A stretch of 34,435 nucleotides of DNA, from NCBI GenBank assembly GCA_946186175.1, contig CAMHMG010000001.1:1-34435 (forward strand). Direction: 5' to 3'. This stretch comes from an uncultured Clostridia bacterium (GTDB lineage: Bacteria; Bacillota; Clostridia; Lachnospirales; Lachnospiraceae). Shown here piece after piece: positions 1-23,412 of this stretch; position 1 is the first letter of the stretch; each line of letters begins with the position of its first letter. The position numbers and the translations under genes are program-made. Under the pieces are notes generated by a model. The model saw only the letters and a program-made list of their open reading frames with translations, was not told the DNA's origin and did no database searches.

Positions 1-2160
1 TATCTCTCTTGTTGTAGTAACGTCGCCTCTATTGACAGGTCGATTACTGTCTATGCTATTATTATTCTTATCCTCCAAAAACTGTTTATCTTCTGTATTT
101 CCGGGCACAACCTTCACTATCTCAGTATTACTATTATCATCCTTTAATGCTCCCGAATTATTCTCTTTATTTCCAGACTCTACACTTCCTGTCTCTGTAG
201 CATTATTATCATCCTTTAATGCTCCCGAATTATTCTCTTTATTTCCGGGCTCTACACTTCCTGTCTCTGTAGCATTATCATCATCCTTTAATGCTCCCGA
301 ATTATTCTCTTTATTTTCTGACTCTACACTTCCCGTCTCTGTAGCACTATCATCACCCTTTAATGCTTCTGAATTATTCTCTGCGCTTTCCGATCCACCG
401 TTCTCTATCTCTGTATTATTACCGGCTTCTTCCTCTGTTTTTTGTGATGATATATCCCCATCGCTTTCCTGCATACCGGCATTATGATCATCATCCGTAG
501 CAGGTTGATCATCAAAAGGCAATTTGATCTCATCAACGACAGTGACCTCTTTCTCTCCTGTCTTATAATATATCCTCTCGTCCGACCGATTGACCACCAT
601 TACAGGACATATTCCAAGATAAGCAGTACATGTATTAATATGTCCGTAAACAGCCCTTACATCACCCTCAATTTCTTCCTCCAGCACATGCATATAATAT
701 CCGTCCTGAGTACTTGATGTACCAAGCCAATACGATAACCCTTTATCGTCAGAATCAGAATTTTCTTTATATTGTGAATAAGAATATGCTGTGGGATATC
801 TCCAGATCACAGCCATACTTTCCTTCTCTGTTAAAGTATTCTTTCCCTCCTGCATCCACTCACATATATCATCATATGAGGGCAGCATCAGCTTATCAGT
901 TGTTTCACCATTATATACACTATTCCCAAGTTTGCTTCCATTTTCATGAGTAGTATCCAATACTATTTGTTTTTCTGTATTAGAAAATGCATTGTTATAG
1001 AAATAATCATTAAGCCATCTTCTGATATCAGAAGAGCCCCAATATATTCCATTACGTTCCTGGCTTTCGTTATACTGACCATAATCCAATATAGAATCTG
1101 CCATCAGCACAAGCTTCGTCTCTGACGCATTCATTACCCGCCACTTAATAGGATCATTTACTTTACCTGACTTATCTGACTGTGGATAACTCCCCATTTC
1201 AACTATATCATATACGATTGTATGTCCATCATCTCCTAATGTCTCATAACGTGGTGAATCCACATTGTCTTCCACCCATACAGTATTGGCATATGGCGGG
1301 GCATACTCTGTATACGGCTTTACTACCACACTATCTGTTCTAAGAAGATTTTTTCCCAGATACTCCTTAGATACATAAACCATTGGGCATACACCTAACG
1401 TTATTCTACAAGTATCTATTGAAGAGTTTAACCATACACTCTCCTGGTTAAAACTATCATATTTATCCTGCTTTATATATCGATATATTCCATTCTGTTC
1501 TCCCGAAGTACGAACCCAGTATCCATCAAGCCCATCGGGTGATCCTCCTGCTTTTATCTGCATTAAATGTGCATATGCTGTAGCATATCTCCAATACAGC
1601 ATCTGTCGGTTATTTCTTACATAACCGGATTTTTCACCCTTATAATTCATGTTATATAATTCATTTACATCCGGCAGAAATACGGCATCTCTTACAACCT
1701 GATAATCATCACTTTCCGGGTAACCCACCACATGATCAACATAAGATAATGCCTTCTTTTCGTCAATAGAAAAAGCCTCATCTGCAAAATCCTCCATCAG
1801 CCAGGTTCTAAGTTCACAAGTATCCCAGTACTTACCGCCATTATCTACAGGGTCAAAAACTCTATAATCTAATATTGAATCTGCCCACAACAATACAGTC
1901 TGCCCGTTAACTTCCATTACTCTCCATTTGATAGGATCTTTAGTCTTTCCTGACGGATCACTTTGTGGATAAGTGCCAAATTCCACAATTTCATATTCCA
2001 TGTATTCCTGTCCGTCATCCTCCGTGACAAGCCATGGCTCTTTGAGATTGATCGGTGTAGCATTCCCGTTATCAAATGTCTCTGCAGAAGCAACACTGCC
2101 AAAGCATAAAGAGAACACCAATATAACCGCGATCAAACCACATATATAATTTTTTCTCAT
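1..2160 (-). CDS. Secreted repeat protein, 3'-partial (continues past window start): signal peptide, two DUF6273-like modules, acidic 24-aa tandem repeats
   Basis: Absent from the ORF track because there is no stop in the window. The minus-strand frame is open for all 720 codons from the ATG at 2160-2158 to base 1. Alternative in-frame ATGs lie at 2175 and 2190, and GGGTGG sits 7 nt before the 2175 ATG. The N-terminus MRKNYICGLIAVILVFSLCFGSVASA looks like a signal peptide. Two paralogous modules each contain G(T/S)YPQSD.SGK..DPIKWRVM...L.ADSILDY, which from memory matches the DUF6273 family. The C-terminal part is D/E/N/S-rich repeats. Confidence 0.8.
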   Translation of the reverse strand, partial: MRKNYICGLIAVILVFSLCFGSVASAETFDNGNATPINLKEPWLVTEDDGQEYMEYEIVEFGTYPQSDPSGKTKDPIKWRVMEVNGQTVLLWADSILDYRVFDPVDNGGKYWDTCELRTWLMEDFADEAFSIDEKKALSYVDHVVGYPESDDYQVVRDAVFLPDVNELYNMNYKGEKSGYVRNNRQMLYWRYATAYAHLMQIKAGGSPDGLDGYWVRTSGEQNGIYRYIKQDKYDSFNQESVWLNSSIDTCRITLGVCPMVYVSKEYLGKNLLRTDSVVVKPYTEYAPPYANTVWVEDNVDSPRYETLGDDGHTIVYDIVEMGSYPQSDKSGKVNDPIKWRVMNASETKLVLMADSILDYGQYNESQERNGIYWGSSDIRRWLNDYFYNNAFSNTEKQIVLDTTHENGSKLGNSVYNGETTDKLMLPSYDDICEWMQEGKNTLTEKESMAVIWRYPTAYSYSQYKENSDSDDKGLSYWLGTSSTQDGYYMHVLEEEIEGDVRAVYGHINTCTAYLGICPVMVVNRSDERIYYKTGEKEVTVVDEIKLPFDDQPATDDDHNAGMQESDGDISSQKTEEEAGNNTEIENGGSESAENNSEALKGDDSATETGSVESENKENNSGALKDDDNATETGSVEPGNKENNSGALKDDNNATETGSVESGNKENNSGALKDDNSNTEIVKVVPGNTEDKQFLEDKNNNSIDSNRPVNRGDVTTTREI
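96..420 (-). repeat. 72-bp in-frame tandem repeat (three near-identical units at 146-361 plus degenerate flanking units) encoding NKENNSGALKDDxNATETGSVExG
   Basis: The landmark aatgctcccgaatt recurs at 146, 218 and 290, and degenerately at 362, giving an exact 72-nt period. It lies inside the 1..2160 CDS. Confidence 0.9.
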
Positions 2161-2292
2161 ACGACCAATGCACATAATCAGACCACCCATATTTTAATTA
2201 CTATAATCGACATCTACAATTAATAGTTCACATTATAACACGAACTTAATAAATGTTCCATTAATTGACAAAAGCTTATAAGAATTTAAAAC

Positions 2293-2323
2293 TATAAAAA
2301 GCAAGGCACATCTACCCTGCTTT
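2293..2323 (-). terminator. Rho-independent terminator after the LytTR gene
   Basis: The minus strand reads AAGCAGGG-tagatgtg-CCTTGCTT followed by TTTTTAT. The stem is 8 bp with one mismatch. Confidence 0.6.
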
Positions 2324-2355
2324 CTATAAAATATATACGTTGATATTCTGATCTA

Positions 2356-3090
2356 TTACATATTATCTCTGACATACGATCTATATCCGGATTCAAACTT
2401 CTTCTTATAGGTCTCTCCCAAAGGGATGATCGTTCCTGACTGAAGTACTATTTCATTACCATCTACTTTTTTCACGTATCTCGTATTCACTATAAAACTT
2501 CCGTGGCACCTTTCAAATAACGAGTTTAACTGCTCATACATTTTTTTGATAGAAGAGTATACTGAATAGACCTTGTTGCATGTATGAACCTCTATCATTC
2601 TGTTTTTCCTCTCTATGTACTGAACATCCACCTGACAAATAATAATATGTCTTCTTCTGTATACTAATTCCAGATACTGGTTTTTAAGCCTTTCCTCATT
2701 ATCCTTGATCAAACGGCTAATGAAATGATCCAGCCATGCCTGAGCATCAGTCTTTTTACATAGACAATAATGTGTTACATCATAGATTTGGGGAATTTCA
2801 TTATAATCATCAACAAAATACATTATCGTGCAATCCGGTAACAACTTATTGATCAACATACCAATCTGAATCCCGTCAGGTCCTGCACTTTCATAACACA
2901 TATCAAGAAACAGAATATTGTAATCAAATTCATGCTTATTAATACTTTTAATAAGCTCCTCTACTCTGCATTGCTTTACCTTTGAAATCTGCAAAGGATA
3001 CTTTTTCTTAAGTATAGTCTCAATACTATTTGCAAATAATTTATCATCAAAGCACATCATTAACTTCATTTTATCATCAATCGCTTCCAT
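2356..3090 (-). CDS. Receiver-like domain + LytTR DNA-binding domain transcriptional regulator
   Basis: The C-terminus has the LytTR signature (ERCHGSFIVNTRYVKKVDGNEIVLQSGTIIPLGETYKKKF). The N-terminus is CheY-like, with CFDD and ILFLDM acidic positions, but the T/S position reads FVDD. The start may be the second ATG at 3069 (MKLMMCFDD). There is no adjacent histidine kinase. Confidence 0.8.
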   Translation of the reverse strand: MEAIDDKMKLMMCFDDKLFANSIETILKKKYPLQISKVKQCRVEELIKSINKHEFDYNILFLDMCYESAGPDGIQIGMLINKLLPDCTIMYFVDDYNEIPQIYDVTHYCLCKKTDAQAWLDHFISRLIKDNEERLKNQYLELVYRRRHIIICQVDVQYIERKNRMIEVHTCNKVYSVYSSIKKMYEQLNSLFERCHGSFIVNTRYVKKVDGNEIVLQSGTIIPLGETYKKKFESGYRSYVRDNM

Positions 3091-3156
3091 TTTGCCTAAT
3101 ATTCAAAATCGATTGATTCTATCACATAATCAAATAAAAATGTGTTCAATTGTTCC

Positions 3157-3415: not shown

Positions 3416-4420
3416 CTATCCTAATTCAAATTTTTGTGATGACATTTCCGTACAAAATATATCTCCTGTCCTTAATTTTACTATCTCTCCATCTAATATC
3501 CTCTGCTTTTCATTTATAATAATGTTATTACCCCCTGACACATTACGCAGACTATAATTTTTGTCAGCCTGGTGGTAAATGATAACTCCCTGTTTTTCAC
3601 CAACAACATCATCATTAATAACTATATCTGAATATCTGCCATCCCTTCCAAAAATTATCTCTGCTTCAGGCTTTATTCGGAATATCACCCCATCAAGAGG
3701 TCCACCTACACCAATTATTGCTCCATATCTATTCCACTTACGCAGGCTTTTCCATATTCCACCATCACCCTGCTCATAATAATCCCGACCGACCGGGATT
3801 TTCTCGCCCTTTATTATGATATACTCCCTATGTACCTCTTCTACATACTTAGCATTTACCAGAAATGAGCGATGGCATCTCACAAATCCTTTGTCCAGCA
3901 ATTCTTTTTCAAGATCTCTTATTGTCATGTAAAAATGAATGTCCTCACTCTGACCATGCGGATATATTATCCTCTTTCTACTTTCAAAATAATTGATACG
4001 ATCCAGATCAAGCTCATAAGTTTCCTTATTGACCATAACAGTAAATGTATTTTTATCAAAAGATTTAAATTCCAGATATTTATCCATAATACTTTTGATA
4101 TTTTTTTGTTTTACAGGGTAAGTAAGTATTGCAAATGCACGATAAAATACCAATTCTTCTAAGCATTTATTCTTTGGAATAAGCAGTATCATATCTATGT
4201 TGTTATTATGCTTGTTTATTTTTTTGATGGTATTAAATGACTTATCAATATCACAAAATAGAACATCAGGTACATCATTATTGCTCTCTATTGACCTTAC
4301 CATTTCTTCACTATCCCGATAAATGTATATTATTTTGTTTACACTGTCCTTATCCTCAGATATATATTGTTTAATTCTTTCAGCCACCCTATTATCTGCA
4401 CATATCCCAATCCTTATCAT
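3416..4420 (-). CDS. Degenerate receiver - LytTR - FHA three-domain fusion protein
   Basis: N-terminus: a CheY-like fold signature with a single acidic residue (ICADN), LFCDID, and P instead of T/S (ILLIPKN). Middle: LytTR (FVRCHRSFLVNAKYVEEVHREYIIIKGEKIPVGRDY). C-terminus: FHA-like (IIFGRDGRYSDIVINDDV...YSLRNVSGGNNIIINE...GDIF), but the canonical S-x-x-H reads G-E-K-Q. The RBS GGTGAGGG precedes the ATG. Confidence 0.75.
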   Translation of the reverse strand: MIRIGICADNRVAERIKQYISEDKDSVNKIIYIYRDSEEMVRSIESNNDVPDVLFCDIDKSFNTIKKINKHNNNIDMILLIPKNKCLEELVFYRAFAILTYPVKQKNIKSIMDKYLEFKSFDKNTFTVMVNKETYELDLDRINYFESRKRIIYPHGQSEDIHFYMTIRDLEKELLDKGFVRCHRSFLVNAKYVEEVHREYIIIKGEKIPVGRDYYEQGDGGIWKSLRKWNRYGAIIGVGGPLDGVIFRIKPEAEIIFGRDGRYSDIVINDDVVGEKQGVIIYHQADKNYSLRNVSGGNNIIINEKQRILDGEIVKLRTGDIFCTEMSSQKFELG

Positions 4421-4787: not shown

Positions 4788-5303
4788 CTAATCTTCAATA
4801 TATATTACTTCTTCCGTATCATTATTATCAGCTGATGTATCGCTATTACTTTCCGAAGCCGCCTCTGACGTTTTCTTTTTCGATTCGCTTTTCTTTTCAC
4901 TTTTCTTTTTATTGTCAGACACCTTTGCTTCGGTCTTGGTTTCTGTATCTTTATTTTTTACTGCTGTCTTTGAAGCGTTTCTATTAGTTGCTGTTGTGTT
5001 ATTAACCGATTTCTCGGTATTGATTTCGTTGGGGGAGTTTTCAATTGTTATCTCCGTAGTTATCTCAGTAGTTGTATCACTTTCACTTTTCCCTTGCTCT
5101 TTTTTATCAAGATTTGATCCTTTATCCTCTGTTGTGATCATATTGATAGCAATTCCTTTATTATCAATACTATCAAGAAGTCTCTTTTCTTTATGTATGA
5201 TCCCTTTATTCAGGTTATGATCAGATGTTTTTTTAACATATGTAAAGATAAAGTTAAGGATAGTGTCCACAACAACAAACAAACTACAGCATATACATGC
5301 CAT
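4788..5303 (-). CDS. T/S/K/E-rich low-complexity ORF; probably the -1-frame continuation (extracytoplasmic tail) of the 5210..6307 gene rather than an independent gene
   Basis: There is no SD before its ATG. It overlaps the 3' end of 5210..6307 by 94 nt in the -1 frame, and an A7 run (5228-5234) lies in the overlap. Confidence 0.45.
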   Translation of the reverse strand: MACICCSLFVVVDTILNFIFTYVKKTSDHNLNKGIIHKEKRLLDSIDNKGIAINMITTEDKGSNLDKKEQGKSESDTTTEITTEITIENSPNEINTEKSVNNTTATNRNASKTAVKNKDTETKTEAKVSDNKKKSEKKSESKKKTSEAASESNSDTSADNNDTEEVIYIED

Positions 5304-6307
5304 CCATTAATCTTTTTTGTTATTACATTGCTTTTATCTTTATGAAGTTCATCAAGAAAATCCGATATCGTCAGTGTTCTTTCTGTTATATCGGTACATA
5401 AAGCATGCATTAATGCATCTTCCGCTTCGTCATCTATCTCAATCCCATATTGAGAGGGTCTTCGCAACAAATCTTCTTTAGACCTTGATACAGCCTCTTT
5501 GGGTGTAACACCTGTTATACACTTATACATTGTGGCAGCCAATGCATATACATCCGTCCATGCCCCCTGATTTCCGGAACTCATATACTGTTCTGCAGGT
5601 GAAAAACCCGGATCTATAATAACTGATAAACTCTTGGTAGCAATAGCTGATGCATTTCTTGCAGCCCCGAAATCTGTAAGTTTAGCTTTACCATCTCCGT
5701 CAATAAATATTGTGTCGGGGGATATATTTCTATGAATCAAACCTTCCGAGTGTATCTTGATCAGTGATATTGCCACCGGCTCCAACAAATTGATGGTTTC
5801 TTCCACCGGTAACTTTCCTTTTTCAAATATATAATCCGACAGACTTCGTCCACTTACTGCCTCCATAATCTGATATGCCGTATTATTATCTTGAAATACA
5901 TCATATATTCTTGTTATTCCGTCAATATTACGAAACCTGGCAAGTTTTTTTGCCTCTCCTATAAATGCCTTCAGACCATCTTCATAAGGCATTTGAAATT
6001 CTTTAGAATACAGATCAACACTTATTAAATCTTTGCCTCTTACCGCATACTCTAATGGAAAAAATTCTTTAATGGCAATTGTTTGTTGAAGAATCTTATC
6101 AAACCCTGAATATATGATGCTATCTCCTCTATACTCTTCCGAAACACCAATAAAATATCTGTTTTCCAACCATGTACCGGGTGTAATATGATAAGATTCT
6201 CTTTTATTGTCAAATGGATTCCGCCCACAACTTGGACACTTTATCTGAGATTCCACAATCTCCTGCATGCAGTAAAAACAACGTTTCATCCTATATTCTT
6301 TCTCCAC
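5210..6307 (-). CDS. Zinc-ribbon + Hanks-type kinase-fold protein, predicted pseudokinase, C-terminal TM helix
   Basis: It has an N-terminal CxxC...CPSCG ribbon. VAIK-like IAIKEF, DFG (LTDFGAAR) and APE-like SPAEQ are kept. The G-loop is degenerate (GVSEEYRGDS versus GCGGFG in the paralogue). The catalytic loop is HRNISPDT instead of HRDxxxxN. The TM segment is WHVYAVVCLLLWTLSLTLSL. The likely true start is the ATG at 6289 (MKRCFYC); the track start at 6307 is GTG. Confidence 0.8.
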   Translation of the reverse strand: MEKEYRMKRCFYCMQEIVESQIKCPSCGRNPFDNKRESYHITPGTWLENRYFIGVSEEYRGDSIIYSGFDKILQQTIAIKEFFPLEYAVRGKDLISVDLYSKEFQMPYEDGLKAFIGEAKKLARFRNIDGITRIYDVFQDNNTAYQIMEAVSGRSLSDYIFEKGKLPVEETINLLEPVAISLIKIHSEGLIHRNISPDTIFIDGDGKAKLTDFGAARNASAIATKSLSVIIDPGFSPAEQYMSSGNQGAWTDVYALAATMYKCITGVTPKEAVSRSKEDLLRRPSQYGIEIDDEAEDALMHALCTDITERTLTISDFLDELHKDKSNVITKKINGWHVYAVVCLLLWTLSLTLSLHMLKKHLIIT

Positions 6308-6322
6308 AATCAGATTTACCTA

Positions 6323-7420
6323 TTACCAACCTTGAGTATATATATACACAAATACTATAAGCATGACAGGTAAGATGAGGAATATTGCTGCTACTATTCT
6401 TTTTTTTCTCTCTCTTATTTCATTTTTTTTTTTTACTGAAACTAATGAAACAACTTTTTTCTTCTCTAATACTTCCAGCAGCTCTTCTGCATTTTTAAAC
6501 CTGTCCTCAACATCTAACATCATCAATTTCATAACTGCATTATTAATATAATCCGGAATTACATTATCCAGAGCATCAATATACTCCTTTGGCTGTTTTA
6601 TATGATCATTCTTAAGTCTTCCTATTGACTCCATCGGAACGACACCGGTCAAGGCCCGATAAAAAGTAGCTCCTAAAGCATATAGATCTGTCCATGGACC
6701 TTGCTCCTCTTTAATTCCGTACTGCTCGGGTGGTGCATATCCAACTTTAACAATTGCTTTTGCCACGCCTTCCGACGGAAGCACAAGTCTTGCGGCACCA
6801 AAATCCAATAACTTAACTTTTCCATTACTACACAAAAAAATATTGTCAGGACTAATATCTCTATGAAGGATTCTCTCTTTATGCAATGACTTCAATCCAT
6901 TTGCAATCGATTGTATAACCCACAGACAATCGTTTACTGACATTCTTCCGTCATTGACATCAAGATACTGCTTTAAAGACAATCCTTCTAAATATTCCAT
7001 AACAATATATGCTGTCTGATTAAGTTCATAATAATTATAAACATTAACTATATTTTCATGCTTTGAAAATTTGGCCAAAGTTCTGGCTTCTGCCATAAAA
7101 CGATATAAACCTGATCTATATTCCCGCTCATTCTCTTTAATATTTACATAAACTTCTCTTCCTGTTTCAGCCCTTCTGACCATGCCACGAGGAAAATATT
7201 CTTTAACCGCTACAACAACATCCAACATTGTATCATAAGCTTTATATATTATCCCAAAGCCTCCACAGCCCAACGCCACTCCTATATAATAACGATCAAG
7301 AAGCATTGTTCCTGCCGCAAGATAATTACTGTTATTGTCTTTTCCATCGACAATATTGCCACAATGCGGACAGACATCATATTCACTTGGATATTCTTTC
7401 ATACAGCGATAACAGCGCAA
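6323..7420 (-). CDS. Zinc-ribbon + Hanks-type Ser/Thr protein kinase (catalytically complete), C-terminal TM anchor
   Basis: It has CxxC...CPHCG at the N-terminus. Kinase motifs are G-loop GCGGFG, VAVKEY, HRDISPDN, DFGAAR and APPEQ. The C-terminal helix is IVAAIFLILPVMLIVFVYIY. It has a TTG start with AAAGGAA 8 nt upstream. Confidence 0.9.
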   Translation of the reverse strand: MRCYRCMKEYPSEYDVCPHCGNIVDGKDNNSNYLAAGTMLLDRYYIGVALGCGGFGIIYKAYDTMLDVVVAVKEYFPRGMVRRAETGREVYVNIKENEREYRSGLYRFMAEARTLAKFSKHENIVNVYNYYELNQTAYIVMEYLEGLSLKQYLDVNDGRMSVNDCLWVIQSIANGLKSLHKERILHRDISPDNIFLCSNGKVKLLDFGAARLVLPSEGVAKAIVKVGYAPPEQYGIKEEQGPWTDLYALGATFYRALTGVVPMESIGRLKNDHIKQPKEYIDALDNVIPDYINNAVMKLMMLDVEDRFKNAEELLEVLEKKKVVSLVSVKKKNEIRERKKRIVAAIFLILPVMLIVFVYIYTQGW

Positions 7421-7521
7421 TTAATCATTCCTTTAACTATCAATGTAATTAAAAACACAAAATGTATACTGTCAGTCGACATAAATATATTATCATAGCT
7501 TTTACCATATTTCTACCAAAT

Positions 7522-7551
7522 ATTTTGCAAGGATAGACTTTAATTTTGCAC
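7522..7551 (-). promoter_or_regulatory. Candidate LytTR-type operator: 9-bp direct repeats GTGCAAAAT / TTGCAAAAT separated by 12 bp, upstream of the kinase operon
   Basis: The minus strand reads GTGCAAAAT(7551-7543)-taaagtctatcc-TTGCAAAAT(7530-7522), an exact 21-bp period. TATGATAAT (7497-7489) lies 24 nt downstream, and the operon start (TTG 7420) about 70 nt beyond that. Confidence 0.45.
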
Positions 7552-7586
7552 GGTCATATCAATTTGTGTATAATCATCGGTCACTC

Positions 7587-11824: not shown

Positions 11825-13438
11825 TTAAGATTGTTCATTACTATACACATTTGAAAACAGATTTTCGTATTCATTTGAAAAGTTATATTTAATCTTAAAT
11901 CGATTGTCTTCGTAAACAGTTATCTCATTAATCATCTCAACAATGATATCTCTGTCAAGCTTGGTTATCTCTTTAAGTTCCAACAACCTCTTAACCCACT
12001 CATTTTCAAAATAATCTGTAGAATTATCTGTTTTCTTTTCTTCAAGTACACTTATCTGCTTTGATAGCAACTCTTCTTTTAAGATGTAGTCCTTGCGATA
12101 GGAAAGAAATTCATCTTTGGTTATCAGATCGTCTTTATAATCCTCATAAATTGACTTCTTAAGGTTTGTTACACGTTCAAGTTCTTTATTAAGTCTGTTG
12201 ATTTCCGCCTCAATAATCTTTGTATTATCGGGCTTTTTCACGGTCTTTGCTTCTACGGATGCTTTTAACAGATCGACATTCTTGATCATAGTATTTAAAT
12301 CATTTAACACAACATCCTCTAATACTTCCATCGGTATTGAATGAGGCGTACAGTATTCTTTTCCGACTCGTTTATACGTACCACAAACCATCCTATATGC
12401 CATTGAGTTGTCCTTGCGACGCCACATATTCTTCATCATATGACGTCCGCAATCACCACACTTGACATATCCTGCAAAAATATTGACGTTATTTGTAAGC
12501 CCTATGTCACGTTTCTTATACTTTAATAAATGTTGCGCTCTTTCCCAAGTCTCCTTATCAATTATAGGCTCATGGGTATTCTCAACTACAATCCACTCAG
12601 TCTTATCCAGCATTTTTTGTTTGCCTCTCATGACCTGATGATGTCGATGTTGTACCATATTGCCAATATACATTTCTTTATTAAGAATTGCGTTGATTGT
12701 GGAGTATGTCCAATATGATGTACTTTTCAAACGGTGTGCATTCTTATAATTAAATCCGTTACTTGCCTTGTACTCAGACGGACATAAAATGCCTTCAGCA
12801 TTTAATATTTTCGCAATACGTTGTTTGCCAAAGCCTTGAACGAACAAGTCAAATATCTTTCTAACAACCGATGCTGCATATTCATCAATGATCAGTTTAT
12901 TCTTATTATCAGGCGCTTTCTTATAACCATAACAGGCAAAAGCACCGATGAATTCACCGGATGTCTGTTTTGCTTTGACAGTCGCTTGTATCTTATTGGA
13001 TATATCCTTGGCATATTGCTCATTGAAAAGGTTTTTGATCGGTAACAACATATCATAAGCCTGCTTCTTGCTATCAATCCCATCCACTATTGATATGAAG
13101 CGCACTCCCTTTTCCGGAAAGTAACGCTCAAGATATCTTCCGGTATCTATGTAATCACGTCCAAATCTCGAAAGATCTTTTACAATAACACAATCAATAT
13201 CACCGTTCTCGATAGCTTCTATCATTCTCTGAAATGCAGGACGATTGAAATTCGTTCCTGTATAACCATCATCAATGTAGAACTCAACCGACTTAATATC
13301 ATCATGACTTGATATATATTCATTTATGAGTTTTCTCTGATTGCCAACACTGTTACTTTCTTCCTTATCACCGTCCTCACAAGATAATCTGATGTATGCT
13401 GCCACGTTAAATAAGATGTTATATTCCATATAATTCAC
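11825..13438 (-). CDS. Large serine recombinase (resolvase catalytic domain + recombinase domain + zinc ribbon + coiled coil)
   Basis: The catalytic domain reads AAYIRLSCED...NQ...DDGYTGTNFNRPAFQRMI...VIVKDLSRFGRDY, and the Cys cluster is CGDCGRHM...CGTYKR...CTPH. The likely true start is the ATG at 13429 (MEYNILF), with AGGTGA 5 nt upstream; the track start is GTG. Confidence 0.92.
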   Translation of the reverse strand: MNYMEYNILFNVAAYIRLSCEDGDKEESNSVGNQRKLINEYISSHDDIKSVEFYIDDGYTGTNFNRPAFQRMIEAIENGDIDCVIVKDLSRFGRDYIDTGRYLERYFPEKGVRFISIVDGIDSKKQAYDMLLPIKNLFNEQYAKDISNKIQATVKAKQTSGEFIGAFACYGYKKAPDNKNKLIIDEYAASVVRKIFDLFVQGFGKQRIAKILNAEGILCPSEYKASNGFNYKNAHRLKSTSYWTYSTINAILNKEMYIGNMVQHRHHQVMRGKQKMLDKTEWIVVENTHEPIIDKETWERAQHLLKYKKRDIGLTNNVNIFAGYVKCGDCGRHMMKNMWRRKDNSMAYRMVCGTYKRVGKEYCTPHSIPMEVLEDVVLNDLNTMIKNVDLLKASVEAKTVKKPDNTKIIEAEINRLNKELERVTNLKKSIYEDYKDDLITKDEFLSYRKDYILKEELLSKQISVLEEKKTDNSTDYFENEWVKRLLELKEITKLDRDIIVEMINEITVYEDNRFKIKYNFSNEYENLFSNVYSNEQS

Positions 13439-13501
13439 CTATTCAACTGCTGTCCCTACATTAAATGTTATAACATAAATGATAACTTTTCTCAATGTAT
13501 T

Positions 13502-13624
13502 TCAAGCAGTCTCCTCTCTCTTATAATCATTGTTATGGCGTTCTATTATTCTGATTATCAACTCTTCAACTGTTACCTTTCCGAGAAATTCGCGCTCTAT
13601 AATATATGTGTTTCCGTTCCCCAT
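13502..13624 (-). CDS. Small 40-aa protein upstream of, and co-oriented with, the recombinase (TnpW-like; candidate directionality/accessory factor)
   Basis: GGAGGG lies 7 nt before the ATG at 13624. The sequence is MGNGNTYIIEREFLGKVTVEELIIRIIERHNNDYKREETA. From memory the TY.I...F....T.EELI.RII pattern resembles transposon-encoded TnpW-family proteins. It is below the track's size cut-off. Confidence 0.4.
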   Translation of the reverse strand: MGNGNTYIIEREFLGKVTVEELIIRIIERHNNDYKREETA

Positions 13625-13742
13625 TACTGTTCCCTCCATCTATCTTCATTTTCGCATTTTCCTGTGTTATAATTCGATTAACTGATATTGCATCTATATG
13701 CTGATTTTAAGTAATAAATGACGAAAACACATTGAGAGCAAA

Positions 13743-16103
13743 TTGAGCACAGATTACGAGGAGAAAATGTCAATGGAACGGCTTGATTTCTGCACCGTCT
13801 TACAGATCATTAAAGACTATTGCAATGAAGAACTGTATGGAACACAGCTTAAACTTGTTGAGAAATTGTTCCACACCTGCGTCTATGGTGAAGATGATGA
13901 TGTTATATACTTTGACGATTCACAAGTGTGCCGATGGTTAAAGGGACAGGTCTGTGTCAGCAGGACAATTACATCCTATTATCTGAAATCAGAAGAACAC
14001 AAAGAACAGTTTGCAAAAGATATTGATGAAAGAATAATCTCTATCATGTATGACAAAGAAATGGCGCTGATAAAACTGCGAGAGCTTCTGTTAAATGATA
14101 CTTCAATATCCGATTCAAAAAAACAGGAGCTTGATTCTTATTACAGTACGGATTCCGATAAAGACATGGCAGCATTTATATCCATTCTCCTTCTGTTTGC
14201 AATGGAACGAAAATTCATACAGCATGATACGGAGAAGAAACTCATAACCTCGGGCGGACTGTCTCCGGTAATATCTGATTACATATTTGAAAATGATCCT
14301 CCAAGTCCATGCAGATATTTCTGCGGACGGGATAACTAGCTTAAAGAACTTCACGAATTACTTACGGATAAAAAGATAATATTTCTGTCAGGAATTGCAG
14401 GAATAGGGAAAAGCGAGCTGGCAAAGGCATACGCCAAAAAATATAAAAAGGGATACACCAACATTTTATATATTACATACAGCGGAAATCTGACAGAGGA
14501 TATTGCAGAACTTGATTTTGCTGATGACCTTCCAAATGATAATGACAGAGAACGTCTCAGAAAACATAACCGCTTCCTGCGTTCATTAAAAGACGACAGC
14601 CTTATTATCATAGACAACTTTGACACTACCGCTGACAGCGACAGTTATCTTTCCATTATTATGAAATACAAATGTCGTATCCTTTTTACAACAAGAAGTC
14701 ATTTTGAGCATTATGACACATTTGAACTTAATGAGATTCAGGATACAAATGAACTGCTTTCTCTTGCTGACAGATTCTACAATGATTTTTCTGCTGACAG
14801 AGATACCGCACTTGAAATAATAGAAACAGTACATCACCACACCTTTGCAGTGGAACTTGCTGCAAGACTATTACAAAAAGGGATATTAACGCAAAAAGAG
14901 CTTTTGAATAAGCTCAAAGAGGAAAATGTCAGACTGTCTTCCGGTGATATGCTCGGAATAAAAAAGGACGGTATATTACGAAAGGATTCCTACTACGGAC
15001 ACATAAGCACTCTTTTTTCTTTATCTGTTCTTGATGAACAGGAAAAATATATAATGCGTTGTATGTGCCTTATACCTCTTGCCGGAATACACGAACTTCT
15101 TTTTGCGGAATGGACAAAGCAGATTGATATGAATACCATAAATACTCTGATAGAACTCGGGCTCATCAAAGAGCAGCCCTTCCGCAAGATCTGCCTCCAT
15201 CCTCTGATACAAGAGATAACGGTTGCCGATCTTAAACCTTCTGTCACCAACTGTAAAGGAATGCTTGAACATATCCATGACAAAATATTCATAATGCATG
15301 GGCTTGATGTACCTTATGCCTATTCTCTTTTTGAAGTTGTTGATAACGTCATAGATATAACCGACAAAGATGATGCTACCTCTTATATTATTTTCATCAG
15401 GGACGCTTTTCCTTATATGGAATCATATAAGTATAAAAGCGGAATGTATAAGATCATCAATGAACTGGATTTCCTTTCTAATGATAAAGAATACAGTCAC
15501 TTAATAGCACCTTCTCTTTTATATGGATACAAGGTCGCAGTAAAGCAGTATTTTGAAAATGACACAGATGGTGCATATAACTATTCAAAAAAGGCGATAC
15601 AAACATTGCCCGACTTAAACAAAGACACTGCCCTGCTATATTCAAATACTTATTGCAATCACGGAGAGCTGGAACATTTAAAGGGCAACTATGATAAAGC
15701 CATGCAATGTGTTGAAAAAGCCCTGTTGATTCTTGATGATTACAATCTGGATTATACAAATTCTCTTATAGTTCAGGCAATCACCTATGCAGTGCTATTA
15801 TCCGACAATGGTGAAAAAACTAAGGCATTGAACATACCTAACAAATGCAAGAAAACAGTGAAAAGGCATAACAGTGAGATATGTCACGACTTTGCCGAAA
15901 TAGAAGAAACAACTGCTTATATATATATTTCTATGGGTGATACCAAAAAAGCCAGAGTACATTATAAAAAGGCAATAAGCATATATAATATAATCTGGGA
16001 GGAACACCCCGAACTTGTAGAAGAAAAAATAAACAGATTAAAACAGCTGATTGTTTCGCAAGTCCCTAACCCTTCACATTTTATTGATGCAATAATTAAA
16101 TAA
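13743..16103 (+). pseudogene. STAND NTPase (unknown ~190-aa N-domain + NB-ARC-like P-loop + TPR array) interrupted by one in-frame TAG at 14337-14339
   Basis: Track ORFs 13743..14339 and 14661..16103 are in the same frame, and no other stop lies between them. The untracked stretch 14340-14660 encodes LKELHELLTDKKIIFLSGIAGIGKSELAKAY (Walker A), LIIIDNFD (Walker B) and ILFTTRS. LHPLIQEI is MHD-like, and the C-terminus is TPR-like. The likely start is the ATG at 13773 (GAGGAG 9 nt upstream). Confidence 0.75.
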
Positions 16104-16110
16104 TTTTGAA

Positions 16111-16149
16111 ATAACCCAAGTCATAATTTGTGAATTGGGTTATTTTTTA
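16111..16149 (+). terminator. Rho-independent terminator after the STAND gene
   Basis: The sequence reads ATAACCCAA-gtcataatttgtgaa-TTGGGTTAT followed by TTTTTTAT. Confidence 0.75.
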
Positions 16150-16358
16150 TTGTCTTTTTATCTGTCTATCAAATTTTAAATCTAATAATTTACCAAAATG
16201 ATTATTCTCTTTTTTCATTTTCAAAATTCTGCAATTTAATCTCAATCTACTATCAATGTGTTTTATTCCTTCATTTGATAAGTTGTATATGTGATCAGTC
16301 GAACAATCACATAACCCACCGATACATTACAAAAAATTTTATTAAGGAGATGATGATT

Positions 16359-16733
16359 ATGCCAAGAAGTAAAAAAACTATTGATGAACGTATCGACATC
16401 AAAGATGACGAAATCCAAAAGCTGTTAGAAAGAGCCAATCAGTTGAAAGCTCAAAAAAGACAGCTTGAGCAGAGAAAGAAAGCCGAAGAACGGAAAGCAA
16501 GAACTCACAGTCTGATTGTCATCGGCGGTGTTGTTGCTTCTGTTCTTAACAGAGATTTTGTAGATGGCGATGATATGCGTCTGATGAACTTCCTAAAGCA
16601 GCAGGAACGCAACGGGAATTATTTTTCCAAGGCTATGAACAAAGGTACGCCGGATACGGCGAAGAAAGAAACTGCAGGCGATATTAAAAGCAGTGATGTG
16701 CCAAGCGAGCAGACCGGTAATGACGGGGAGTGA
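16359..16733 (+). CDS. DUF3847-family protein (mobilisation-module accessory protein of Clostridial ICE/IMEs)
   Basis: AAGGAG lies 9 nt before the ATG at 16359 (MPRSKKTIDE). A coiled-coil KAQKRQLEQRKKAEERKARTHSLIVIGG follows, then LMNFLKQQERNGNYF. From memory, RKARTHRLI is characteristic of the family. The track's longer 16275 start has no RBS. Confidence 0.7.
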   Translation: MPRSKKTIDERIDIKDDEIQKLLERANQLKAQKRQLEQRKKAEERKARTHSLIVIGGVVASVLNRDFVDGDDMRLMNFLKQQERNGNYFSKAMNKGTPDTAKKETAGDIKSSDVPSEQTGNDGE

Positions 16734-17451
16734 TTTTATCATTCCCTTCACAAAGGGAAGGCGCACTTATATATGGGCGGAGCCCATATATACCACTCCG
16801 CTTCGCTCCGTTAGTGCGCTCTTCGAGGAGCGGAACAACAGTCGCTCCGTAGGCGGTCGTGCCGTCATAGGTGCCGCCCTCTGCGGCGAGGGTAAGCGTT
16901 GCAGGCGTTGTATCATAGCTGTCCGGACAACCCTCCGCGCAGGTCGCCGTGATGGTATCGCCCGCATCATTTACGGAATATGTAAAACTGTGGGTGTGAG
17001 GAGTTCCGTAATATACGACAATCGTACTGATAGTAGCATAATTATTACCATCGATGCCGATTATATTAACCGATGTTGCATTGATATCGGTTACTGTCAT
17101 CCTACTACCGTCAAAACTTACTGTACCTGCTGATGCGCTAAGAGCGGAAGATCCCCATCTGGTTGGGTTATATTTTTTTGCATCGGTGAGCACTATCCTT
17201 GTAATGGGGTCATCGCTTGAAGATATGGACACACTCTTACTACTATTGACAAAAAAGGCGCTATAATTGTAAGAACCCGCCGAAACGGTTACCCCGTTTT
17301 GTGTCCCCGTCGCTGTGAAGGTTTCACTTTGCTCAGCTGCATACGCCGTCAGGCTCATGCCGGGAACAATACCTGTCATGGTGCTAAACACCATAACAAG
17401 TGCCAGCAGACAGCTTATCACCTTTCTTCCTGATTTCTTTTTTTGTTTCAT
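16684..17451 (-). pseudogene. 5' remnant of a secreted surface protein gene (signal peptide + about 200 aa), truncated at about 16840
   Basis: The signal peptide is MKQKKKSGRKVISCLLALVMVFSTMTGIVPGMSLTAYA. The sequence is sensible up to ...ATLTLAAEGGTYDGTTAYGATV. After that comes an implausible tail (PLLEERTNGAKRSGIYGLRPYISAPSLCEG...) that runs through the palindrome and overlaps the 3' end of the DUF3847 gene. The 16801-16920 segment is about 62% G+C by hand count, in an AT-rich window. Confidence 0.55.
16768..16792. repeat. Perfect 11-bp inverted repeat TATATATGGGC-gga-GCCCATATATA at the junction of two convergent, truncated units
   Basis: Read directly from the sequence. There is no U-tract on either strand, so it is not a classical terminator. 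Confidence 0.8.
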
Positions 17452-17545
17452 AAGTTCATCACTCTCGTATTATATAGTTTTTTGCTTATCATATTCGAAA
17501 TCAGACATCCTGCTAATTACCAGATATGAAAAAATATAATATATA

Positions 17546-17600
17546 ATAAAAAGCACCCGAAAGAACTACGGTATCGTACCGTAAGCCCTTATCGGGTGCT
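17546..17600 (-). terminator. Strong Rho-independent terminator (about 22-bp interrupted hairpin + U-tract)
   Basis: The minus strand reads AGCACCCGA-U-AAGGGC-U-UACGGUA-cga-UACCGUA-GUUCUU-UCGGGUGCU followed by UUUUAUUAU. Confidence 0.8.
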
Positions 17601-17618
17601 TATTATTTATGTGCAATT

Positions 17619-17640
17619 CAAAAAGAGCGCAGAACGCCCT
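17619..17640 (-). terminator. Small Rho-independent terminator
   Basis: The minus strand reads AGGGCG-uucug-CGCUCU followed by UUUUG. Confidence 0.5.
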
Positions 17641-17715
17641 ATGTATGTATGTAGAGATTTTATTTCATACCGGTCAAGCCCCATTCAAAACATTATTTAT
17701 TATCACTTGAATATC

Positions 17716-17750
17716 ATTATAACAAACGGTTGCCACAAATCTGCCACAAA
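17716..17750 (-). promoter_or_regulatory. Promoter-like module A: TTTGTGGCA-ga-TTTGTGGCA, 9-nt spacer, TATAAT
   Basis: On the minus strand the 9-mers are at 17750-17742 and 17739-17731 (11-bp period), and the -10 TATAAT is at 17721-17716. It lies 3' of the response-regulator gene. Confidence 0.5.
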
Positions 17751-17769
17751 CAAGGGGTATTTCACAATG

Positions 17770-18546
17770 TCATAACACCGCCCATGTATATTGTCTCATA
17801 TACCCATCAAGTTCTTCCCTGCTATATTGTTTTCTTCCTTCAAGATAATCATACAGGTCACAGCTTATCTTCTCTTTATTGAGACTGTAACATCCTTTAT
17901 TGTCATTGATTATTATATCTTCAAGTCCGTAAGCACGAAATGCAGTCCTTATGTCGCTTATGATATTTCTTATATACCGGCGTTTCTTTTCCGTATCCTC
18001 TTCCTCGGACCATAGAAGATAACGAAGTTCTTCCTCGGAAACAAGAGCGCCTCTTTTATCGATCAGATATGCAAGCACCTCTTTACACTGTGACCTCTTG
18101 AAATCAATCGGTATTCCGCCGTACAACACCTCAAATTGTCCGAAACACTTTACCTTCAATTCCGATATTGGAAATCTCAGATTATCAACGGCTTTCTGCA
18201 TTTTCTTCTCATTTACGGGCTTCATAATAAACCCGCTGACATACATTTCAAGAATATCAACCGCGTACTTATCGTGTCCGGTAATAAATATTATATTGGT
18301 GCGGGGACTGATACTTTGAATACTCTTTGCAACCTCAAGTCCGTTTTTATACGGCATTTCAATATCAAGAAATGCTATCTGTATGCCTTCGGAAGTTTCA
18401 AACGCCATCTCCTGTTGAATTATTTTTATAACCTCATCCGAGTTTTGTGCAAGAAAGAATTCCGTGTTATCTCCAAGTACCTTCTTTGCTGTCCTGTGTA
18501 TATCTTTTAATATAAAAGGCTCGTCATCTGCTATAAGACATTTCAT
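17770..18546 (-). CDS. Response regulator: CheY-like receiver + SARP/OmpR-type winged-helix DNA-binding domain
   Basis: The receiver motifs are canonical: LIADDE, AFLDIEMP, IIFITGH and IMKP. The C-terminus reads CFGQFEVLYGGIPIDFKRSQCKEVLAYLIDKRGALVSEEELRYLLW. Confidence 0.85.
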   Translation of the reverse strand: MKCLIADDEPFILKDIHRTAKKVLGDNTEFFLAQNSDEVIKIIQQEMAFETSEGIQIAFLDIEMPYKNGLEVAKSIQSISPRTNIIFITGHDKYAVDILEMYVSGFIMKPVNEKKMQKAVDNLRFPISELKVKCFGQFEVLYGGIPIDFKRSQCKEVLAYLIDKRGALVSEEELRYLLWSEEEDTEKKRRYIRNIISDIRTAFRAYGLEDIIINDNKGCYSLNKEKISCDLYDYLEGRKQYSREELDGYMRQYTWAVL

Positions 18547-18554
18547 GTTATCTC

Positions 18555-19835
18555 TTATCTCCCATCATGTTTACTTCTTGTATCAGGTATCTCTAATGTA
18601 ACGACAGTTCCTTTCCCTGCTTCACTGTTTACTGTTACCTCTCCACCTAATATCCGCTCAAATCTGTCACGGACATTCTTAATTCCCACATGCTCTACTC
18701 CGTCAAATTCAACATTATCCACATCAAAGCCTTTGCCGTCGTCAATTATCTTAATAATTATGTTTCCGGCATTTTCTTCTGTAGATATGGTAATCGTACC
18801 CTTTTCACCCTTCATGCTTATTCCGTATCGGACTGCATTTTCCACGATAGTCTGCACCGACAGGGGCGGAACACTGAAATCCGTAACAGTAAAATTCCTG
18901 ACAAGCTCTATCCTTCCCGGAAATCTCATCCTTTCAAGATACAGATAATTTTCAACCGATTCCATCTCCTTATCAAATGATACAAGACGCATATCTTCAA
19001 TCTGCTTTATATTCTCCTGAAGATATCCCGAAAAATGATCTATCATTTCCACCGCTTTATCCGCATCCTCATAACAAAGGCTTCTTATGACAGCAAGATT
19101 ACTGTTGATAAAATGCGGTCTTATCTGCGCCATCAAAAGATTGCATCTGTTATGCTCTAATGCAAGACTGCTCTCATGTAACTGCTCCTGCACATCAACA
19201 TACTGGATTGCAGCCAGATAGAAATAATATGTGAATAACTCGACCGCAATGACAGCAGGCAGATAACCGTTCGGCATATAATTCAACGTAAGGAGCTGTG
19301 CAAGGAAAATGGTCAGCATCATAAAGACAACTATGATACCCTTTGAGCGGTTCCTTCCCCTTAACAGTCTGATTGAATATACAGCAATTATTATTACATA
19401 AAAATCTTCAACCACAAATGCAAGGTGATTAAGCGGTCCGCCATGATAGGAATAATTATCTTCATAAGTATATACCAGTGCACTTCCGGATAAGTCTATT
19501 ACATTTACTATCATATTGAATATCTGCGGTATCGCGATAAGGAACTTATGCTTTATATCGCAGATAGTATAAAGAAAAATAAGGGCAACCGCCGGATAAA
19601 GCGTGTATATAAGCATTGCTTTATAAAACAGCAGACGATAATCAAGGTTATGAGTATCTATCCAGACCTCCGAAAACTCAAGCAACGAGATCACAAGCGC
19701 CATAAGAGACAATATATACAGATACCCTGTCTTCTCTATCTTTGCATTCCTGTTCACCATCAATATCACAATGACAGCCGCTACAAGAAGAACTGTCGGG
19801 TAATTATTGACAGTATATTCAGTAAAAAAATTCAT
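18555..19835 (-). CDS. Sensor histidine kinase, LytS/YehU-type (multi-TM sensor + His_kinase + HATPase_c)
   Basis: There are about six N-terminal TM helices. The H-box reads AQIRPHFINSNLAVI, and the ATPase blocks read VENAVRYG and IIDDGKGF...GIKNVRDR...GKGT. Confidence 0.88.
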   Translation of the reverse strand: MNFFTEYTVNNYPTVLLVAAVIVILMVNRNAKIEKTGYLYILSLMALVISLLEFSEVWIDTHNLDYRLLFYKAMLIYTLYPAVALIFLYTICDIKHKFLIAIPQIFNMIVNVIDLSGSALVYTYEDNYSYHGGPLNHLAFVVEDFYVIIIAVYSIRLLRGRNRSKGIIVVFMMLTIFLAQLLTLNYMPNGYLPAVIAVELFTYYFYLAAIQYVDVQEQLHESSLALEHNRCNLLMAQIRPHFINSNLAVIRSLCYEDADKAVEMIDHFSGYLQENIKQIEDMRLVSFDKEMESVENYLYLERMRFPGRIELVRNFTVTDFSVPPLSVQTIVENAVRYGISMKGEKGTITISTEENAGNIIIKIIDDGKGFDVDNVEFDGVEHVGIKNVRDRFERILGGEVTVNSEAGKGTVVTLEIPDTRSKHDGR

Positions 19836-19973
19836 AGATTCATCAACTCCTGTATATCACGGAAACCAATCTATAATGTTACTTATATCTGATTTATTAT
19901 ATCATGAACTTCATAATTGCGACATCCCTGTCGCAAAAAAGCACTCGTTCATGCTATATATACTTCCATGTAT

Positions 19974-20008
19974 AATATATCACAAGTGTGTAACAAATCT
20001 GCCACAAA
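19974..20008 (-). promoter_or_regulatory. Promoter-like module B: TTTGTGGCA-ga-TTTGTTACA, 9-nt spacer, TATATT; upstream of the HK-RR operon
   Basis: On the minus strand the 9-mers are at 20008-20000 and 19997-19989, and the -10 TATATT is at 19979-19974. It lies about 140 nt before the HK ATG at 19835. Confidence 0.5.
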
Positions 20009-20010
20009 TT

Positions 20011-20066
20011 ATAAAAAGAAATAATAAGGACTTAATCATGTACTGATACAATGATCAAGTCCTTAT
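20011..20066 (-). terminator. Rho-independent terminator (16-bp stem, one mismatch) immediately upstream of module B
   Basis: The minus strand reads ATAAGGACTTGATCAT-tgtatcagtac-ATGATTAAGTCCTTAT followed by TATTTCTTTTTAT. Confidence 0.65.
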
Positions 20067-20112
20067 CCCTTGGCTAATTAGTTATCAACGAAAGGGCGAT
20101 GTCTGTACCTCC

Positions 20113-23227: not shown

Positions 23228-23344
23228 ATGCTCACCCCTTCGTATTATCTGTTCATTTATCCGTAGTATAGCATATATAAGCACTTTTATCCACTGAAAA
23301 AAAGATTCCCCGTATTTCACAAATATTATTTCAATTCTGTTAAA

Positions 23345-23412
23345 AATGAAAAAACAATTCTCCGGCACCCTGCAAACGTTAATACAAACATTTTAGCAAG
23401 ATACCGGAGAAT
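23345..23412 (-). terminator. Putative terminator of the giant gene (9-bp stem ATTCTCCGG/CCGGAGAAT, large loop, U-tract)
   Basis: The minus strand reads ATTCTCCGG-(38-nt loop)-CCGGAGAAT followed by TGTTTTTTCATTTTT. Confidence 0.45.

Follow-up and report, generated by a model that had tools for sequence, protein, structure and literature searches.

We describe a regulator gene in a 34,435-nucleotide stretch of DNA (hereafter the window) from an uncultured Clostridia bacterium of the family Lachnospiraceae (GenBank assembly GCA_946186175.1, contig CAMHMG010000001.1). Its product is a real, conserved three-domain DNA-binding regulator of gut or rumen Lachnospiraceae that joins a receiver-like domain, a LytTR domain and an FHA-fold domain in one polypeptide. 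Sequence, predicted fold and synteny point to a new domain combination of well-known parts. Judging by residue comparisons, both signal-reading domains lack the usual phosphate-handling residues, and the gene sits in a conserved cassette with a Hanks-type Ser/Thr kinase and a predicted pseudokinase. What intrigues most is the double loss of sensor chemistry alongside a pseudokinase partner. Little of the Ser/Thr kinase signaling of gut and rumen Firmicutes has been mapped, and few direct connections between Hanks kinases and transcription have been described, EmbR being the textbook case.

The regulator is encoded by a single open reading frame (ORF), with a Shine-Dalgarno-like motif (GGTGAGGG, read from the sequence) a few bases 5' of its ATG. 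A word-indexed search over 5.8 billion proteins recovered seven full-length relatives (334–346 residues, 48–64% identity) and one truncated form, together referred to as the clade. The full-length set aligned end to end, and the continuous three-domain ORF recurred in independent ENA, JGI, Logan and NCBI assemblies. A preliminary description of this DNA, made from the sequence alone, had proposed a fusion of receiver, LytTR and FHA domains in one polypeptide; Pfam and fold evidence bore out all three domain calls, and every motif it quoted is present (ICADN at residues 6–10, ILLIPKN at 78–84, FGRD at 257–260, VGEKQG at 273–278, and NVSGGNN at 293–299). Conservation within the clade was uneven: mean pairwise identity was 34% in the N-terminal domain, 71% in LytTR, 82% in the 17-residue linker that follows it, and 71% and 47% in the first and second halves of the FHA domain, respectively. 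By these values, the linker and the N-terminal FHA half are constrained as strongly as the DNA-binding domain, and both appear to be under purifying selection, in contrast to the receiver-like domain, the least conserved part of the protein. No NCBIfam model scored above its cut-off for the regulator, with the AgrA, BtsR and LytR models far below theirs.

The N-terminal domain adopts a predicted receiver fold that has lost most of its catalytic residues. In the full-length AlphaFold2 model (mean predicted local distance difference test (pLDDT) 70.7, predicted template modeling score (pTM) 0.41, residues 213–274 below pLDDT 50), the N-terminal domain showed β1α1β2α2β3α3β4α4β5α5 topology (pLDDT about 70–87), followed by a LytTR beta fold. 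Foldseek comparison of this model with the PDB ranked full-length ComE first (4cbv, receiver plus LytTR, E = 3e-11), above AgrA LytTR domains, many isolated receivers (TM-score 0.7–0.78 on the target) and several FHA domains; receiver fold matches of the N-terminal domain included ComE, PhoP and CpaE. The clade profile matched the SLN1 receiver over residues 2–124 (E = 6e-4). Pfam Response_reg (PF00072) found no match in the window regulator and only one among the eight clade members (E = 0.016). The catalytic DD-D-T/S-K quintet reads A8, D9, D57, I81 and Y101, a loss of three of five residues. The preliminary description had stated that the acidic pair is missing, which holds for the first residue (A8) but not for the second (D9), and the phospho-acceptor position D57 is retained as well. 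Its observation that the conserved Thr/Ser is absent was correct (I81), and the conserved Lys, which it did not mention, is also replaced (Y101). Both the Lys and the Thr/Ser are missing in all seven clade members compared; the position of D57 holds Asp in five, Glu in one and Asn in one, D9 or E9 occurs throughout, and the β3-α3 loop is shortened in four, including the window regulator. No histidine kinase was found in the cassette of the window or of three clade loci (L001, L004, and L006), and the sole histidine kinase/response regulator pair of the window lies 13 kb away (17770–19835). An A-D-D-I-Y quintet in a cassette without a histidine kinase agrees with the pseudo-receiver proposed at the outset.

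The central domain is a conventional LytTR output domain. Pfam LytTR (PF04397) matched residues 133–216 (E = 6.4e-19, 68.4 bits against a cut-off of 22.6), and the AgrA LytTR domain was matched both by the clade profile (E = 9e-9) and by fold (TM-score about 0.7). The clade-specific linker behind it is Trp-rich; its counterpart in the wider family described below varies in length and sequence.

The C-terminal domain has an FHA fold. Pfam FHA (PF00498) matched residues 256–322 (E = 9.8e-6; 26.4 bits, gathering cut-off 20.7) and was found in six of seven full-length orthologues. A domain-only AlphaFold2 model of residues 228–334 was confident (pLDDT 96, pTM 0.87, ten strands); its 34-row gapless alignment included distant relatives with canonical FHA domains, which is a caveat to the prediction. 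The best 50 PDB fold matches were all FHA domains (TM-score 0.64–0.83), among them CT664, CEP170, DgcB, GarA/OdhI, EmbR, Rad53 FHA1, Ki67 and the FHA-like domains of YscD and PscD, and the family FHA profile matched solved FHA domains down to E = 3e-13. The fold check called for in the preliminary description was thus run, and its refuting outcome, a C-terminal stretch of 100 residues without an FHA beta-sandwich fold, did not occur.

The pocket that would bind phosphothreonine (pThr) in this fold is degenerate. The window regulator has G258-R259, G274-E275-K276-Q277 and N293-V-S295-G-G-N298 at the pocket sites, and neither it nor the clade carries the canonical residue set (G-R; S-x-x-H; Asn of the S-x-N-G-T loop). 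Since the alignment here runs without gaps between two flanking anchors (DIVIN ... IIYH), G-E-K-Q truly replaces the S-R-x-H of canonical relatives, as first described. The retention of G-R and N-x-S-x-x-N, also claimed initially, applies to the window regulator but not to its clade: across seven members the pocket Arg is R/S/K/S/R/S/S (Arg in two), the Ser is G/G/S/D/D/E/G (Ser in one), the loop Asn is N/I/E/R/A/A/A (Asn in one; the window loop reads SGGNNI), and the His is Gln in all seven. By contrast, 26 of 28 distant (REC-)LytTR-FHA relatives aligned with these seven members keep the full G-R, S-R-x-H and S-x-N-G-T/V signature. The preliminary view of the regulator itself as a phosphopeptide reader is therefore not supported. 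Within the former phosphate loop, however, K276 and Q277 are invariant in the clade, which suggests that this face still binds a ligand with an altered, probably phospho-independent specificity.

The regulator gene is embedded in a six-gene cassette whose members, from position 7420 down to 2356, all lie on the minus strand and are tightly spaced (Table 1). The order is kinase 1, kinase 2 (the pseudokinase), a small FHA protein (FHA102), the regulator, a 67-residue zinc-ribbon protein (ZnR67) and a second LytTR regulator (LytTR244), with a DUF6273 surface protein gene next. Exactly this order was repeated in the loci of three orthologues (P0005, P0002, and P0003) and in two Lachnospiraceae metagenome-assembled genomes (MAGs) from GTDB, and the DUF6273 gene followed the cassette in L001, L004 and L006. 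Kinase 1 retains the GxGxxG, VAVK, HRD and DFG motifs. Kinase 2 has a degenerate Gly loop and HRN in place of HRD in all orthologues (L001, L004, and L006), and the two look like a conserved kinase/pseudokinase pair. Both carry Ser where the catalytic loop usually has Lys (HRDISPDN in kinase 1, HRNISPDT in kinase 2). FHA102, encoded 22 nucleotides upstream of the regulator, is 59–85% identical in orthologous loci. ZnR67 combines a CxxxH...CPHC ribbon, a conserved Thr (D/N-T-D-S/D) and an A[VI]TLE[QE]GLA motif; it may serve as a substrate for a kinase or as a ligand for an FHA domain. Its ribbon resembles the N-termini of both kinases. A related small gene is present in loci L011 and L013, with the Thr motif appearing as VTDS in L013. 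LytTR244 is kept in the cassette of clade loci and has no Pfam Response_reg match; in its N-terminus the receiver-like positions hold DD, D and K (MMCFDD, ILFLDM, and CLCKK), and the Thr/Ser is absent. A GC-rich hairpin with a T-run similar to the one that closes the cassette was also seen in L004 and L006.

The pseudokinase gene of the window is split into overlapping ORFs (5210..6307 and 4788..5303) at the A7 run 'tta aaa aaa cat' (about 5230–5236). Insertion of one A, or a −1 slip on A_AAA_AAA_C, would rejoin the two into a single protein, and in relatives kinase 2 is a single ORF of 472–524 residues ending in EE[IV][IL]YIED. A homopolymer sequencing error, phase variation and programmed slippage are all possible causes of the frame break. 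The Thr-rich tail behind the break was considered as an FHA ligand, and the idea was dropped because the tail follows a transmembrane segment and should be extracellular. An anti-phage role for the cassette was also dropped, as PADLOC gave no defense-system match beyond generic kinase models.

The same domain combination extends well beyond the clade. An exhaustive hidden Markov model search over 1.84 billion representatives returned 19,473 matches, nearly all ordinary REC-LytTR regulators; the size of the family was judged from the best 150 of these and is a lower bound. Among these 150 were about 20 clusters of full-length REC-LytTR-FHA proteins and about 7 of LytTR-FHA proteins without a receiver. 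A second word-indexed search, with a broad alignment, produced only 15 proteins and added almost nothing. Members of this wider metagenomic family (P0012-P0044, P0022, P0043, and others) share the domain order, are homologous to the regulator throughout (23–32% identity; 38% for P0010) and have a kinase and large surface protein neighborhood. They differ in their mostly canonical FHA residues and variable linker, which the window clade has exchanged for a degenerate pocket and a conserved linker. Their receivers carry the full quintet in only 5 of 21 cases, with the Asp kept in 9, and receiver degeneration thus appears common in the family. FHA-pocket degeneration, among the sequences aligned, is restricted to the window clade and, in part, to P0010 (GS...D-R-R-H...EHV) and P0022 (GN...A-D-V-H...DRA); the loss may have happened more than once, or stepwise. 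In GTDB (one genome for each of 185,579 species), the clade was confirmed in only two species, both Lachnospiraceae MAGs, and is therefore rare. The combination is catalogued in databases but unstudied: wider-family members are annotated only as 'LytTR family transcriptional regulator', databases already list the three Pfam domains on distant members, and a literature search for proteins that unite LytTR and FHA domains found no paper on them.

Five wider-family loci were sampled. Each encoded a Ser/Thr kinase, of the PASTA type in three, together with a large surface protein (DUF6273, LRR or Flg_new); PP2C phosphatases occurred in two. In four of the five, the gene directly upstream of the regulator encoded an FHA protein of ~110 residues, and in four a small gene without a Pfam match lay directly downstream. 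The association with Hanks-type signaling is therefore a trait of the family. The link to Hanks kinases made in the preliminary description is thus borne out as synteny, by a strictly conserved gene neighborhood in both the clade and the wider family.

A candidate operator was identified within the cassette. Paired 9-bp direct repeats with a 12–13 bp spacer are the known site format of AgrA, ComE and other LytTR regulators, and a repeat of this kind lies upstream of the LytTR244 gene (Table 1). In four independent loci, TACA and TATGGAACA were invariant and the 21-bp register was fixed; the conserved element reads ATRRTACAW-N12-ATGGAACAW. The pattern TACAW-N12-ATGGAACAW occurred exactly once per clade locus, always in the ZnR67-LytTR244 intergenic region, and once in the window. 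LytTR244 may pair with the three-domain regulator on the non-identical half-sites of this repeat. The sole other exact ATGGAACAW in the window is the ATGGAACAT box at 2253–2261, 14 nucleotides 5' of the −10 hexamer (TATAAT) of the DUF6273 gene, itself a possible target gene; as the region 5' of this gene aligns only between the window and L004, the single box is weak evidence. At the other end of the cassette, 5' of kinase 1, a promoter-like block of ~50 nucleotides (TTGCAAAAT..GTAGAAATATGGTAAAAGCTATGATAATATAT, minus strand, 7440–7560) is almost identical among the window, L004 and L006, and can still be recognized in L001.

We lean, by a narrow balance, toward a reading in which the regulator is the DNA-binding output, or one of two outputs, of a Hanks-kinase module, its degenerate domains acting as docking or oligomerization modules and the kinase signal arriving indirectly. 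The LytTR domain would bind the 9-N12-9 repeat 5' of the LytTR244 gene, possibly jointly with LytTR244. The pseudo-receiver and the degenerate FHA domain would no longer sense phosphate chemically and would serve in protein-protein docking or oligomerization. The kinase signal might reach the regulator through FHA102, which would read pThr; the activation loop of the pseudokinase and the conserved Thr of ZnR67 are conceivable sites. Alternatively, the regulator might be phosphorylated directly on Ser/Thr. Coupling to the kinases is more likely indirect or phospho-independent because the pThr-pocket residues are not conserved in the clade. Several observations weigh against this proposal. The window regulator retains R259, N293, S295 and N298, which makes residual or altered phospho-binding possible, and an Asp at position 57 in five of seven orthologues is odd for an entirely inert receiver. 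The Ser in HRDISPDN, where Hanks kinases usually have Lys, means that kinase 1 activity is assumed. The cassette encodes two LytTR proteins, either of which is a candidate user of the repeat, and a generic sigma-70 promoter scan performed no better than on shuffled sequence. Inter-domain contacts cannot be inferred from a full-length model with so low a pTM.

A direct role for the FHA domain is the first alternative: it would bind pThr or pSer via a re-wired pocket (R259, K276, Q277, and N293/N298) and dock on the autophosphorylated kinase in the manner of EmbR and PknH. The intact fold, the two invariant residues in the loop that normally holds the phosphate, and the constant adjacency of the kinases fit such a role, and the solved FHA domains of CT664 (GSD) and CEP170 (V-D-K-Q-H) tolerate some of these substitutions. 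A working pThr pocket would, however, be expected to be conserved, and the Arg, Ser, His and loop Asn vary across the clade while distant relatives remain canonical; moreover, the canonical FHA102 next door could do the reading. We consider direct reading unlikely. We also regard as improbable a kinase-independent regulator, in which a constitutive LytTR repressor or activator uses its FHA and receiver-like domains only for oligomerization or autoinhibition and the kinases act on other targets. Degeneration of both sensor domains is compatible with this, as is the high conservation of the linker and first FHA half, which is what an intramolecular or dimer interface would show. Yet the cassette gene order is held at 50–64% protein identity, and a Ser/Thr kinase in every sampled wider-family locus, with a small FHA gene in four of five, is the kind of tight linkage that normally reflects a shared pathway.

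It is very unlikely that the regulator is still a response regulator whose D57 receives phosphate from an orphan histidine kinase or from a small-molecule donor, with the FHA domain as an accessory. Retention of D57 in most orthologues, of D9 or E9 in all, and of the full DD-D-T-K quintet in five wider-family members leaves some room for it. Against it stand the loss of the first acidic residue, the Thr/Ser and the Lys, the shortened β3-α3 loop, the lack of a Pfam Response_reg match, the replacement of the acceptor by Glu or Asn in two orthologues, and the absence of a histidine kinase from every cassette inspected. Finally, a sequencing frameshift that joined two genes, or a C-terminus that is a decaying remnant, is excluded, since full-length relatives align end to end across independent assemblies; a homopolymer frameshift does occur in the same cassette, in kinase 2, but the continuous ORF recurs in seven orthologue clusters, the FHA domain is modeled confidently, and its first half and the linker are among the best-conserved parts, so that we regard this explanation as refuted by cross-assembly conservation with a negligible chance of error.

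In a more far-reaching scheme, the whole cassette would be a previously undescribed signaling pathway of Lachnospiraceae and related Clostridia. Taken as a whole, we consider this scheme doubtful. A tail-anchored Hanks kinase would pair with a pseudokinase bearing an extracellular Thr/Lys/Glu-rich tail, and this pair would control two LytTR factors by way of a mini-FHA adaptor of canonical type and a small zinc-ribbon protein. The LytTR factors would in turn switch on giant surface proteins (DUF6273, LRR, or Flg_new). The clade FHA domain would have evolved from a pThr reader into a phospho-independent docking domain, marked by the invariant K-Q loop and the Trp-rich linker. If true, this would be a natural case in which an FHA domain switched to another class of ligand and its ancestral reader role passed to a separate gene. 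The family as a whole is a compact kinase, FHA and LytTR module that recurs beside very large surface proteins, and it may govern the face that Lachnospiraceae show to their host or substrate. With canonical and degenerate FHA pockets and complete and incomplete receivers, the clade and its relatives form a natural series for asking what pseudo-sensor domains do after their phosphate chemistry has gone.

Table 1. Coordinates of the regulator, its domains, and neighboring features in the window.
Feature	Position	Strand	Basis or remark
Regulator (REC-like / LytTR / FHA-like), whole gene	3416..4420	minus	single uninterrupted ORF, 334 residues; seven full-length orthologue clusters, 48–64% identity
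Putative pseudo-receiver, residues 1–120	4061..4420	minus	(β/α)5 topology, receiver fold matches, SLN1 profile match
LytTR DNA-binding domain, residues 125–216	3773..4048	minus	Pfam; AgrA sequence and fold matches
Clade-specific linker QGDGGIWKSLRKWNRYG, residues 217–233	3722..3772	minus	82% mean pairwise identity, most conserved stretch of the regulator
FHA-fold domain with degenerate pThr pocket, residues 234–334	3419..3721	minus	Pfam, AlphaFold2, PDB fold matches, gapless alignment
Kinase 1: N-terminal zinc ribbon, Hanks-type Ser/Thr kinase, C-terminal membrane anchor	6323..7420	minus	Pfam Pkinase E = 9e-38
Kinase 2: N-terminal zinc ribbon, kinase-like domain, transmembrane segment at end; predicted pseudokinase	5210..6307	minus	partial Pfam Pkinase match (110–277)
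Kinase 2 C-terminal Thr/Lys/Glu-rich tail	4788..5303	minus	−1 frame after A7 run; one continuous ORF in relatives
Stand-alone FHA protein (FHA102), 102 residues	4443..4751	minus	Pfam FHA E = 3.5e-10; canonical GR / SRIH / S-K-H-G-T
Zinc-ribbon protein (ZnR67), 67 residues	3199..3402	minus	conserved directly downstream of the regulator in the clade
Second regulator (LytTR244), 244 residues, atypical receiver-like N-terminus plus LytTR	2356..3090	minus	Pfam LytTR E = 3e-16
Candidate LytTR operator ATGATACAT-N12-ATGGAACAA	3150..3179	minus	between ZnR67 and LytTR244 genes; its end lies 25 nucleotides 5' of the extended −10
Conserved extended −10 element TGATAGAAT of the LytTR244 gene	3116..3124	minus	downstream of the candidate operator
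Terminator-like hairpin closing the six-gene cassette	2292..2329	minus	follows the LytTR244 gene
DUF6273 repeat protein, signal peptide, secreted	1..2190	minus	runs off the window start; conserved downstream neighbor

Elsewhere in the window, a second giant secreted or surface protein is encoded at 23460–33371 on the minus strand (3303 residues, with 8 Flg_new (Listeria-Bacteroides) repeats and Big_2 domains), and related loci carry DUF6273, LRR_5 or Flg_new giants beside the kinase-FHA-LytTR module. The AAA-ATPase_like/PDDEXK_9 gene at 21590–23368 has counterparts in L001 and L006. The region 11825–21434 has a mobile-element flavor, with a large serine recombinase (11825–13438), a DUF3847 protein (16275–16733), a His_kinase/HATPase sensor with an OmpR-type response regulator (17770–19835) and a DDE transposase fragment that scored below the Pfam cut-off (20442–21434). 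It may be an insertion between housekeeping genes (rpiB and sua5) and the surface-protein genes. Scans for Rfam families and tRNAs across this DNA found none.

Among known systems, AgrA, ComE, AlgR and LytR/BtsR are homologous in sequence and fold to the N-terminal two thirds of the regulator. They differ in having no FHA domain, a functional receiver and a cognate histidine kinase, whereas the window regulator has the predicted receiver fold but no full quintet, no Pfam Response_reg match and no histidine kinase encoded nearby. For AlgR, a LytTR regulator, phosphorylation by the Ser/Thr kinase Stk1 has been reported (PMC11197903), and within the literature searched this is the nearest published link between a Ser/Thr kinase and LytTR signaling. 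DgcB of Bdellovibrio also fuses an FHA input to an output domain (GGDEF) in one polypeptide, and its FHA domain is among the best fold matches of the regulator's own (6hc0/6hc1, TM-score 0.78–0.81); its output, however, is a diguanylate cyclase rather than a DNA-binding domain, and its FHA domain, crystallized with a phosphorylated peptide, is a canonical reader. The cytoplasmic FHA-like domains of the type III secretion proteins SctD, YscD and PscD have no canonical phosphothreonine-binding residues and in this respect resemble the degenerate FHA domain described here. The corresponding Pfam family, Yop-YscD_cpl, was matched weakly by five of eight clade members, and YscD (4a0e) and PscD (6uid) were found as fold matches (TM-score 0.63–0.68). 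These domains nevertheless lie at the N-terminus of membrane ring proteins that are not transcription factors, and they are less similar to the regulator's domain than bona fide FHA domains. EmbR of Mycobacterium tuberculosis is likewise a transcription factor with a C-terminal FHA domain, linked to the Hanks-type kinase PknH, and its FHA domain matched that of the regulator in fold (2ff4/2fez, TM-score 0.70) and by profile (E = 5e-5). The EmbR FHA domain has a canonical pThr pocket that binds phosphopeptide, in contrast to the lost pocket residues of the window regulator, and EmbR uses a SARP-type winged-helix/BTAD DNA-binding module and has no receiver, whereas in the window regulator only LytTR was detected as a DNA-binding module. 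Both nonetheless unite a DNA-binding domain and an FHA domain in one protein that is genetically linked to a Hanks kinase. By analogy, then, the regulator appears to work most like EmbR, as an analogue and, given its different DNA-binding module, not as a member of the same family.

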